Shown here in pieces: positions 34,752 to 44,746 of a stretch of 64,000 nucleotides of DNA. This stretch comes from Chiloscyllium plagiosum (lineage: Eukaryota). Position 1 is the first letter of the stretch. Every line of letters begins with the position of its first letter. A program made the position numbers and the translations under genes. The notes beneath the pieces are model-generated. The model worked only from the letters and a program-made list of their open reading frames with translations, was not told the DNA's origin and ran no database searches. The stretch covers positions 4,849,374 to 4,913,373 of the forward strand of contig NC_057748.1 of the NCBI RefSeq assembly GCF_004010195.1, read 5' to 3'.

Positions 34752-34853
34752 ATGCAGGCTCAGGTGAGAGAGAACTTCCACCCAGACAGCGAGACTGCCA
34801 TCAACAAACTCATCAGCATCAACTACTACACCTCTTACGTCTACCTAGCCATG
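34752..34853 (+). CDS. Ferritin B coding exon 1
   Basis: ATG at 34752; 34 codons collinear with gene A exon 1; donor ATG|GTAAAA. Confidence 0.92.
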
Positions 34854-37800
34854 GTAAAATCCTGCCTTTTTATCAACATCGTACATGATACAGTGGGAAC
34901 TAAATTGGCCTTTTAAAATGCTACACCCTTGCAAAGAATTTCTTGTGTCTGAAAAAGATACCTTTTTTAACCTCTCGGTGATTATATTGTGTCAAATATT
35001 GCGTGTTGTTTTGCCCTCTGGGATCAGATGGCACCATCTCAGAATCAGGGGTCACCTATAAGATGAGGAATAGTTTCCTCTCTCTGTGGGGAGTGAAACT
35101 GTGGAACGCTTTCCCACAGAGGGCTCTTGAGGCTGGGATGTTAAGTACATTTGATTTGATTTGATTTGATTTATTGTGGTCACATGTACCTAAGTACAGT
35201 GAAAAGGTTTTGTTTTGCGAGCAGTACAGGGATCATAGCAAACAAGGACATGCAGATCACAGGGTTCTTAGACAGAGTGAGGTGCTTAGACACAGGAGAC
35301 GCACAAAGCAAGATCAACATTAGATTTGAAATTTGAGAGCTCCATCTTAATTCTAATACCGGGGGGGTAGAAGCTGTTCTTGAACCTGTCTGTGCATGTG
35401 TTCAAAGTTCTGTACATTCTGCCTGACGGAAGGGGGTGGAAGAGGCTATCACCCGGGGTGGGAGGGGTCTTCGATGATGGTGGCGGCCTTTCCGAGGCAG
35501 TGAGCAGACTGTCCGTAATGAAAGGTTGCCTGCCGTGATGGTTTGGGCTGGGCACCCCACCTTCTGTAGTTTCTTACGGTCCTGAGCAGAGCAGTTGCTG
35601 TTCCAGGCCGTCATGCACCCGGACAGTTTGCTGTCAATGGTCCATCTGTAAAAGCTGGTGATGTTTAATCAGTAAAGGGATCGAGGGTATTGGGGAAAAG
35701 GCAGGAAAGTGAGGTTGAGAGTTAGCAGATCACCCCTGATCCTCTTGAAAGGAGGAGCAGACTGGATGGGTTTCTGCTCCTATATAGGCAAAAGTGAGGA
35801 CTAGGTAAAAACAATGACTGCAGATGCTGGAAACCAGATTCTGGATTAGAGTGGTGCTGGAGAAGCACAGCAGGTCAGGCAGCATCCGAGGAGCAGGAGA
35901 ATCAACGTTTTGAGCAAAAGTCCTTCACCAGCTGATGAAGAGCTTTTGCTCGAAACGTCGATTCTCCTGCTCCTTGATTGCTACCTGACCTGCTGTGCTT
36001 TTCCAGCACCACACTCCAGACTTCAGCTCCTATATACTGTGGTCTTTCAGGAGAATATCGCTTTCTTTATGCAGTGTTCTCAAGGTAAGCAGGGATGAGG
36101 CCAAGAAAGAACTTGCATTTTCATTGCGCTTTCCATTATTGCAGGTTGTTGCAAAGTGCTGCACAGCCAGGAGTAGTATTTAAGAGGCACAATGTGGTTG
36201 GAATTGATTCATGTGTTCCAAAGTCAAACAAAGTCGGAAATTTGTCTTAACGCACGGTGTATTGAAGTGGGTGAACTTAACTCCAGGACTCAGTAAACAG
36301 ACCAGTCGAGATGTCAGCCATGGCAAAGATGGGAATCAGACTTTTAACCATGAGGACATCACAAGCCCATTTGATCCAAACATCAGCCAATCTCACAGCA
36401 GACAGGCACCACCTCACTATTTTGACCAGACCCTTGCCTCCCAATCCATCCATGAGGGGTCCCTATATCCACCTGTTGCTTCTGCGGCCAAGGTCAATGA
36501 ATTGATTGAGTGTTCCCCCCTTCATTCCCACTGAGTGTTTGACAGCACCGCCTACTTGGTACACACCCGCATCATACCCATCAGGGCAGCCCGCCATAGA
36601 CCTCGACAAAACCTAACCCCATGCTGGAAGTGTTGGATGGGAATATTATAGAGGGAGCTTCACTCTGTATCTAATCTTGAGCTGGGAGGGTTTGACGGGG
36701 ACAGTATAGAGGGAGCTTGACTTGGTATCTAACCCCATGCTGTCCCTGTCCTGGGAGTATTGGCTGTGGACAGTGTAGAGGGAGCTTTACTCTGTATCTA
36801 ATCTTGTGCTGTCCCTGTCCATGTTGTGTTGGATGTGGACAGTGTAGAGGGATCTTTAGTCTGTATCTACCCCCATGATGTCCCTGTCCTGGGAGTGTTG
36901 GATGGGGACAGTGCAGAGGGAGCCTTACTCTGTTTTTAACCCTGTGTTGCCCCTGTTCTGGGAGTGTTTGATGGGGACAGTGTAGTGTGAGGATGTGTAT
37001 GTTTATTAAGTGTGCGATGGTGTGTTTCCACACGCGTGACTGTATGTGAGTGTGAGTACAGTTTATGAATAGGAACCAGGCTTGATCTTGCCCAGTTAGC
37101 TTCCGGTCAAACTGCCTGCCACATGATCCCAGCTCGAGAAGGGACAGGCTCTCGAAATCTCACTTTCTCTCAGGGATTATGGCAGTCCAGAACCCAGAGC
37201 AGAGTTCTGCAAACCATTCGGATTTGTAAAAGACATTGTAAAATGATTTATTCCTCCAACCAACCCTCCTCAAACGTTGGGAAACATTAAAAGAGTGGAG
37301 AATTAGCCACAAATGCATGCAGCAAATTGTTTTAAAAATGGAAATTGCTGGAAAAGCTCTGCCGGTCTGGCAGTAATTGCAGAGAGAAATCAAGACCTAA
37401 TGTCTCAGGTCTTTCCTGAAAACTGAGGTTATTGAGTCACAGAGTCATACAGCACAGAAATATACCCTATGGTCCAACTCATTCAGACCGACCACATTTC
37501 CCAAAACAAACTAATCCCACTTGTCTGCGTTTGGCCTATATCCCTCTAAACCTTTCCTATCCATGTATCTATCCAAACGTCTTTTAACTATTGTAACTGG
37601 ACCTGCACCTTCCACCTCCTCTGGCAGTTCATTCCACCTACGGGTCACTGGACCCGAAACATTAATTCTGATTACTCTCCACAGATGCTGCCAGACCTGT
37701 TGAGCTATTCCAGCAGTTTTTGTTTCTGATTTACAACCTCCTCAGTTTTTATTCAGCAATTGATTTTTGTTATCTAACGTCTGGCCCAGGGGATTGTCAC

Positions 37801-43800: not shown

Positions 43801-44746
43801 TCTGCATGGGCTTCCTCCCACAATCCAAAGATATATCAGTTAGATGGTCATTGGATAAACATATGGGTGAAAATTGAACAGCGTAGGTTAAATAGGCTTC
43901 AGACTGGTTCCACAGGTCGTGCAACATCAAGGGCCAAAGGGCTGCATTGTCCTATGGATTGGCCATGTTAAATTGCCCCATAAGTGGGTTAGCCATGGAA
44001 GATGCAGGGTAATAGGGATAGGGTAGGTGGCGTGGTTCTGAGTGGGATTCTCTCTGGAGGATGGGCATGGACTCAATGGCCTCCTTCCACACTTTTGAAT
44101 TATTCTAACTGCCCTCATCACCCAGTGAATGTGGGGTTTATGGGCACGTCCATCTCATGACACCCTTTGTCATGAACAGCAATATTTCACTTGCTTCCCT
44201 GGTGCCAAATGGATTCCATTCCTGATTGACTCTGAACTCCTTGAGTGCACTTTAGCTCTTTCTTGAGAAACTGCGCGTGCTGTAAATCAGAAACAAAAAC
44301 AGAAATTGCTGGAAAAGCTCAGCAGGTCGAGCAGCATCCATGGAGAGAAATCAGAATTAACGTTTCAGGGTCAAGTGACCCTCAGAACAGAATTCTTAAC
44401 TCTTTCTCGCTCTCTCTCCAGGGATGCTACCAGACTTGCTGAGTTCCTCCAGCACATGACATTTCTGTTTCAGGTTTCCAACATCACAGATCTTCGGTTC
44501 TGTGACTGGTAGTGACCGATCTCATGTCATCAGGTATAATAACTGACCGGAGTCACTGAGTTATTTCACATTTGGTTTATTTTATTGTTCTTTCAGATGT
44601 GCAATTACCTCGAGTCCAATTTCTTGAACAGCAGCGTAGAAACGCTGAAGACGTTGGGAGATCACATCACAAGTCTCAAGAAGTTGACCGTGGGCAAGCT
44701 GAGTGGAATGGGCGAATACCTCTTCAACAAGCACACTCTTGGATAG
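34752..44746 (+). CDS. Ferritin gene B, lower/light (L)-type subunit lacking a ferroxidase centre, 174 aa, 4 coding exons
   Basis: Exons 34752-34853, 38630-38776, 43496-43621, 44597-44746; GT-AG, phase 0; exons 1-3 are the same length as in gene A. Translation: [174 protein letters not shown]. No stops or frameshifts. LQK, [18 protein letters not shown] and YLFNKHTLG* match my recollection of the frog lower subunit. Confidence 0.93.
35787..36025. mobile_element. Palindromic Penelope-like family-A insertion in ferritin B intron 1
   Basis: Flanking duplication GCTCCTATATA (35776-35786, 36026-36036); core CTGATGA-AGAGCTTTTGCTC-GAAACGTC at 35932-35959. Confidence 0.8.
38093..38437 (-). mobile_element. 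CR1/HER-like LINE 3' end in ferritin B intron 1
   Basis: [11 protein letters not shown]...[14 protein letters not shown] plus tail. Similar fragments at 40395-40770(-) and 42960-43390(-) in intron 2. Confidence 0.88.
38630..38776 (+). CDS. Ferritin B exon 2
   Basis: Acceptor cttttctcttccaaaaa[10 protein letters not shown]...RGGRI; donor GAG|GTGAGC. Confidence 0.93.
41760..42346. mobile_element. Possible solo LTR or other interspersed repeat in ferritin B intron 2
   Basis: ~590-bp block with imperfect inverted ends GTAACTGGCCAGG ... CCTGGTCCATAACA; no clear target-site duplication. Confidence 0.3.
43496..43621 (+). CDS. Ferritin B exon 3
   Basis: Acceptor ttttcctggcacAG; KPDRQEW...DKHDPQ; donor CAG|GTAGCT. 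Confidence 0.94.
44597..44746 (+). CDS. Ferritin B exon 4
   Basis: Acceptor ttgttctttc[10 protein letters not shown]...[13 protein letters not shown] at 44744-44746. Confidence 0.94.
   Translation: MCNYLESNFLNSSVETLKTLGDHITSLKKLTVGKLSGMGEYLFNKHTLG

Follow-up and report, generated by a model that had tools for sequence, protein, structure and literature searches.

A ferritin lower subunit of the bamboo shark Chiloscyllium plagiosum that lacks most ferroxidase and nucleation ligands

The window analysed here, a stretch of 64,000 nucleotides from Chiloscyllium plagiosum, carries two ferritin genes, gene A and gene B, and gene B encodes an intact subunit from which most metal ligands are missing. 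In the textbook heteropolymer scheme, H subunits serve oxidation and L subunits nucleation, and the standard H/M/L scheme is repeated in PMC13026281 and PMC11719527. The locus raises the question of what a ferritin subunit is for if it can perform neither task. The answer favoured here, at a probability of roughly 58%, is that gene B encodes an inert lower subunit that co-assembles with active subunits, diluting their centres and slowing iron entry, and that does not itself seed mineral.

Residues are numbered below as in human H, which equals gene B plus three; this offset is consistent with the PDB alignments. The alignment of B with A contains 94 identities over 178 columns and a single gap, downstream of all listed sites. 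An earlier note on this DNA had reported eight substitutions relative to A through a gap-free region (E24N, E58L, E59L, H62N, E104Q, D128N, E137S and Q138S in B's own numbering), and all eight are present, each codon being two to three bases apart from that of gene A. The ferroxidase centre of B reads N27, Y34, L62, N65, Q107 and S141, retaining one of the six residues E27, Y34, E62, H65, E107 and Q141. At the L-type nucleation positions B has K57, E60, L61, E64 and S140 (two of the published five), and in the three-fold channel H118, C130, N131 and E134, with the D131/E134 twin carboxylate incomplete. Of the positions that 46 ferroxidase-competent ferritins conserve, 13 are metal-related and 65 are not; B has lost 8 of the former and 17 of the latter (one-sided Fisher p=0.017, a descriptive value, as the list of metal positions was compiled with the finding already known). 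The scaffold retains 48 of these 65 non-metal positions.

Published work on other ferritins indicates what such losses may entail. The L nucleation site consists of E60, E61 and E64, helped by E57 and E140 (PMC12746419; bioRxiv 10.1101/2024.09.04.611303). E61 moves back and forth between the inner surface and the ferroxidase centre and has a key part in Fe3+ transfer (PMC13411386), and E62K by itself abolishes activity (PMC7760355). In human H, D131N severely inhibits Fe2+ transport, and the D131/E134 twin carboxylate is said to be strictly conserved among the cytosolic ferritins of animals (PMC13088775). Given the ligand losses and these mutants, B is predicted to be unable to oxidise iron or to build the tri-iron seed, and to slow the channel. 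The case is strong for an absence of ferroxidase activity and moderate for poor iron nucleation; it is likewise moderate for a slower three-fold channel, which is argued by analogy with human D131N. The helix-B segments of L chains quoted in the earlier note match the database chains of bullfrog L and horse L. Its placement of two leucines at cavity-facing positions applies to L61, which lies at the edge toward the cavity on an ideal helical wheel, but not to L62, a ferroxidase ligand position on the buried face together with F55, N65, A66 and L69.

The family identity of gene B is already known from RefSeq names. Its orthologues, mostly annotated as "ferritin, lower subunit-like", occur in sharks, rays, chimaera, coelacanth, amphibians and bony fishes, with one in each of 23 cartilaginous fish species and open reading frames (ORFs) that include the chimaera; no amniote member is found among the matches listed. 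In a tree of 82 rows, gene B falls within a lower subunit clade of 26 rows (support 100/99), and in a tree of 51 rows including teleost and mammalian L-like rows, this clade comprises 20 rows (99/99). After removal of 22 metal-related columns, support is 96/93 (47 rows, without four that were partial or long), and 94/80 in a smaller masked set of 41 rows without teleost lower rows. A lungfish row on a long branch (P0058) lies outside the lower clade in this last tree, and its placement is unsure. The inner order of the clade is unreliable, because the coelacanth joins the chondrichthyans, contrary to the species tree. These trees identify gene B as the shark orthologue of the ferritin lower subunit of fishes and amphibians, and they support a lower subunit lineage older than the split of cartilaginous and bony fishes, as the earlier note had suggested for the amphibian-type lineage.

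The metal sites were compared across species with one full-length row per species, short isoforms, repeated rows of a species and a single row without a name having been removed; the frog rows counted are a subset of those listed. The full ferroxidase set is present in none of the 23 cartilaginous fishes, all of which have Q107 and a residue other than Q at 141. None has an acid at 61 or a complete E60/E61/E64 triad; position 140 is acidic in two, D131 is present in five, and D131 and E134 occur together in three. The nucleation patch, for which the earlier note had claimed a partial loss in gene B, is thus eroded more widely than it supposed. Some ligands persist in part of the group (E27 in 7/23, E62 in 15/23 and H65 in 7/23), and the white shark and catshark lower subunits keep E27, E62 and H65 while lacking E61. 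The combination L61-L62-N65 is confined to carpet sharks (5/23 species), and N27 is found only in Chiloscyllium and Hemiscyllium. Judged by these alignments, the exact residues of B are lineage-specific and the predicted loss of activity and of the triad extends across the clade.

Outside the cartilaginous fishes, the triad is incomplete in the coelacanth (K60, A61) and in all four salamander rows (P0131, P0226, P0227, P0228), which have A or T at 60 and C61, while V60 and K61 occur in 10/10 salmonid rows printed and in the eel row. All three triad acids are present in the lungfish row, and frogs have a complete triad in 20/22 and a residue other than Q at 141 in 21/22. What is new in these rows is that, frogs apart, the nucleation triad is absent across the clade, the bamboo sharks being an extreme case. 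The literature search, which did not extend to most subscription journals, returned no paper on ligand loss in the lower subunit of sharks or fishes. As a separate observation, all four salamander rows share Cys61, Leu65 and Asp134, with a cavity-side cysteine replacing E61.

Gene B is a genuine, expressed and conserved gene of a known family. It has four exons, every intron is GT-AG and in phase 0, and the ORF of 174 amino acids (aa) has no internal stops; the intactness of ORF, splice sites and poly(A) signal claimed earlier is confirmed. Exons 1-3 were compared with reads of runs X1, X9, X3 and X21. Since the RNA nature of X1, X9 and X3 is a guessed label, expression is deduced from spliced joints and not from run labels. 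A 735-nt contig of X1 joins exons 1, 2 and 3 with 0 mismatching letters, X9 contains the joint of exons 2 and 3, and X3 contains the same joint and a loose end reading the start of exon 4. Spliced contigs are thus present in three of the four runs, and their joints coincide with the GT-AG edges. The single-cell run X21 (raw reads, 2% read, poly(A) library) had a depth of 0 on exons 1-2, which is no evidence of silence and was not used. The single listed exon difference in the reads is synonymous. The RefSeq protein of C. plagiosum (P0005) is identical to the product of B, and all eight substitutions are also present in C. punctatum and Hemiscyllium; together with the X1 contig, this shows that they are no assembly error. 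In a genome search in which 150 of 412 candidates were scored, gene B was single-copy, with no closely similar intronless copy (identity <=55%) and no second B-like locus. The view of B as an intact and transcribed subunit with one of six ferroxidase ligands left therefore stands.

The protein P0005 matches PF00210, and the AlphaFold model of gene B is a ferritin bundle (pLDDT 81.7, with a weak C-terminus) of five helices (11-39, 46-72, 93-120, 124-159 and 163-172) and a TM score of 0.85 both to human H and to bullfrog L. The ESM Atlas yielded ferritin clusters only. The length is 174 aa in most species, with no extra domain or extension. Two details of the locus may be recorded here. An upstream ORF of three codons lies within the transcribed 5' untranslated region (UTR) at window positions 34740-34748 and ends 3 bases 5' of the ATG of B, and a run of A precedes the AG of the exon 2 acceptor (38620-38629), an atypical 3' splice site that is used in run X1.

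Among known ferritins, bullfrog L (FRI3 / PDB 1RCD, 1RCI) is the best PDB sequence match to B (E 1.7e-66, 58% identity) and belongs to the same clade. Like B, it lacks E27, has Q107 and S141, and ends at the same C-terminal point, but it keeps E57, E60, E61, E62, E64, H65, E140 and D131, where B has K57, L61, L62, N65, S140 and N131. The teleost "ferritin, lower subunit" (salmonids and eel, by database annotation) shares the clade with B (99/99) and resembles it in being ferroxidase-null (K27, Q65, Q107, S141) and in lacking the triad (V60, K61). It differs in keeping E62 and D131/E134, in its separate long branch and in other replacements at 60 and 61.

The relation to mammalian FTL is less certain, the comparison being based on L-like rows that are partly incomplete. 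Like B, as judged by its sequence, FTL lacks the ferroxidase centre, but it is disabled via K62/G65 and keeps E57, E60, E61 and E64, and no counterpart of its 5' iron-responsive element (IRE) was found near B. In both best trees, mammalian L-like rows group with lizard rows named "light chain, oocyte isoform-like", and the lower clade does not include them. When these mammal and lizard rows were joined to the lower clade, the approximately unbiased (AU) test gave p 0.083 with full columns and 0.235 with masked columns, so that a joint clade is not rejected. Earlier AU tests (p 0.031; masked p 0.057) were replaced, as they had left the lizard L-like rows outside and thereby inflated rejection. 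An independent origin of the lower subunit from mammalian L is favoured by the trees but not proven. A grouping of mammalian L-like rows with shark ferritin arrays (100/98, all columns) was gone once metal columns were removed and is not claimed; a far array likewise stands next to amniote L-like rows with all columns but not with the metal columns removed.

Two tree rows, which we take by their motif to be FTHL17-like, branch inside the FTH1 clade, which makes FTHL17 an unrelated mammalian offshoot. Human FTHL17 resembles B as a ferroxidase-null ferritin in which position 61 has changed too (PMC7760355), but B is a four-exon gene that predates the split of sharks and bony fishes. The tandem "FTH1b" ferritin arrays of sharks (Yang et al. 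2026, PMC13214024; Sahm et al., bioRxiv 10.1101/2024.09.09.611499) lie on the same contig as B, which differs from them in being single-copy and outside the array clade; ligand loss is not discussed in the available parts of these papers. Yang et al. place FTH1a and an "FTL" branch on one chromosome, which does not agree with the position of gene B here; the term "FTL" is absent from five supplements of PMC13214024 by term search.

Under the favoured explanation, B would join gene A, FTH1 and array subunits in mixed 24-mers; its presence there would lend stability to the shell, dilute the catalytic centres and slow iron entry. In the carpet-shark protein, the leucines L58, L61 and L62 may fill the emptied ferroxidase pocket. 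An inert partner in mixed cages is the simplest role on which selection could act, and co-assembly with a damping effect would be its likely mode of action. Several observations weigh against this explanation. B evolves faster than A (67-73% versus 85-90% identity over four matched species). The conservation of H118 (23/23), C130 (22/23) and E134 (21/23) in cartilaginous fishes indicates that the three-fold channel has not been abandoned, and frogs probably nucleate, since they keep the triad. At helix-B positions 57, 60, 61, 64, 67 and 68, B has four acids (E60, E64, E67, E68) versus three in gene A, and the human L mutant E60A/E61A/E64A continues to form an alternative cluster, only more slowly (bioRxiv 10.1101/2024.09.04.611303); weak nucleation by B is therefore possible.

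These last points lead to an alternative that we regard as rather unlikely, namely that B is still an L-type nucleating or storage subunit, with its patch shifted along helix B to E60, E64, E67 and E68. All four acids are present in B, position 67 is acidic in 23/23 and position 60 in 20/23 cartilaginous fishes, mineralisation by human L goes on slowly when the triad is absent, and the frog orthologues retain the full patch. The shifted patch is nevertheless not conserved, as 18/23 species carry K, R, Q, T or G at position 64 (K64 in Rhincodon and Stegostoma) and only 12/23 have an acid at position 68. E67, moreover, is just as conserved in H-type chains, where it presumably has a role in the two-fold interface.

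Less probable still is a job unrelated to mineral for B cages or mixed cages, such as another ligand, targeting to a compartment or tissue, or a chaperone-like shell. It would suit the combined absence of the catalytic residues, the larger part of the nucleation set, a channel acid and the IRE, as well as eleven clade-fixed residues unlike those of H/M chains (e.g. L23, Y28, T30, A36, E42, F137, G161). Human FTHL17, which is ferroxidase-null, has a proposed regulatory role (PMC7760355), and the depth of gene B contigs varies widely among runs (150, 128, 3), although this is a poor measure. Against such a job, the former metal positions vary freely and share no new residue, the protein has gained no domain or extension, and H118, C130 and E134 are retained. 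In 15 chondrichthyan rows, positions 61, 62, 64, 65 and 131 lie at the 90th-99th percentile of variability, while Q107, H118 and C130 are fixed. High variability of the lost sites on a kept scaffold points to relaxed constraint rather than to a new ligand site, and the suggestion that B binds something other than iron mineral finds no support, as the lost ligands have not given way to any new set of conserved residues. A last alternative takes B for a duplicate in decay, a pseudogene of recent origin or an error in the sequence. Its faster evolution and the lack of an IRE found near it might suggest this, but open frames in 23 chondrichthyan species, spliced contigs, a synonymous-only exon difference and the single locus in the scored candidates largely refute it, and it is very improbable.

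That a ferroxidase-null subunit without the triad persists in sharks, rays and chimaera, in bony fishes and the coelacanth, and in salamanders would imply another selectable benefit than the two of the textbook scheme. The orthologues form a natural series, from frogs with the full patch, via white shark and catshark, to bamboo sharks, in which nearly everything is gone and D131N is added, and this series makes the question of what L is for directly testable. Caution is needed, since the "lower" genes of sharks, fishes and frogs and mammalian FTL may be different genes. A broader view, which we offer tentatively and at well short of even odds, is that the lower subunits are a third class of jawed-vertebrate ferritin subunit, about 450 million years old, with an origin apart from that of mammalian L and no amniote member in the searches made here. 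The conserved job of this class would be to damp the cage, neither oxidising nor nucleating; frog L, a structural model of long standing, would be the odd branch that kept its acidic patch, and the carpet-shark protein a natural "blank" with its pocket plugged by leucines.

Gene A, 32 kb upstream, is a likely partner subunit of B. Orthologues of the two genes appear linked, by near-consecutive accessions, in Heterodontus and Latimeria, each on same-length contigs, and in Eleutherodactylus. The IRE of gene A is the sole gathering-score match in the window (Table 1); near B, no RF00037 match at E<=10 was found in 30000-35000, an upstream 5' exon being possible. A genome-wide RF00037 search with 82 candidates scored returned only gene A and the FTH1 gene on contig C16. 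This FTH1-like gene has a bestrophin gene next to it and clusters with mammalian H; gene A is thus not FTH1.

Table 1. Positions of genes A and B and their elements in the window (H, human H numbering)
Feature	Position	Strand	Remarks
Gene B 5' UTR	34703..34751	+	start is the end of the X1 contig, no proof of transcription start
Gene B exon 1	34752..34853	+	residues 1-34; N24 = H27 at 34821-34823; Y31 = H34 retained
Gene B exon 2	38630..38776	+	residues 35-83; helix B; K54, L55, E57, L58, L59, E61, N62, E64, E65 = H57, 58, 60, 61, 62, 64, 65, 67, 68
Gene B exon 3	43496..43621	+	residues 84-125; Q104 = H107; H115 = H118 retained
Gene B exon 4 to stop	44597..44746	+	residues 126-174; N128 = H131; E131 = H134 retained; S137 and S138 = H140, H141
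Gene B poly(A) signal AATAAA	44895..44900	+	
Gene A	534..2824	-	divergent neighbour of gene B; four exons, 177 aa; ferroxidase centre and channel complete
Gene A IRE	2912..2947	-	Rfam RF00037, 42 bits

The contig of gene B (C39) also carries a BAX-like gene about 4.6 Mb away, RUVBL2 about 1.4 Mb away and large ferritin arrays. BAX and RUVBL2 are neighbours of human FTL. A stricter search found no glycogen synthase gene on C39, so FTL-type synteny around gene B is partial and long-range. One of three glycogen synthase loci lies at C16:48761736-48809951, about 1 Mb from FTH1. A search for a second C16 ferritin, a possible counterpart of the "FTL" of Yang et al., gave no hit in 200 kb surrounding FTH1 and the glycogen synthase gene.

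Between genes A and B, the window contains a 42-bp minisatellite (20986-27643; 158.5 copies, 99% match), three frames of which are open for about 2,190 codons. Just before the window lies gene C (C39:4835805-4846439, +), a divergent ferritin with a full ferroxidase set but with L60, K64 and E131. Gene D (C39:4820442-4830064, -) encodes a ferritin that has Q65 and K140 and whose channel is changed (Y118, S130, N131); it is a further old shark paralogue, since it groups with a Heptranchias protein at 100/98. A tandem ferritin array at C39:4605000-4753000, which lies about 100 kb before the window, has mostly full ferroxidase sets and several broken copies, and the far array at C39:10590000-10610000 has K62 and E141. 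Intronless ferritin copies with open frames and 84-90% identity to a gene A orthologue occur at C19:45780619-45781146, C35:29115133-29115660 and C27:40658678-40659205; those on C19 and C35 have identical scores.

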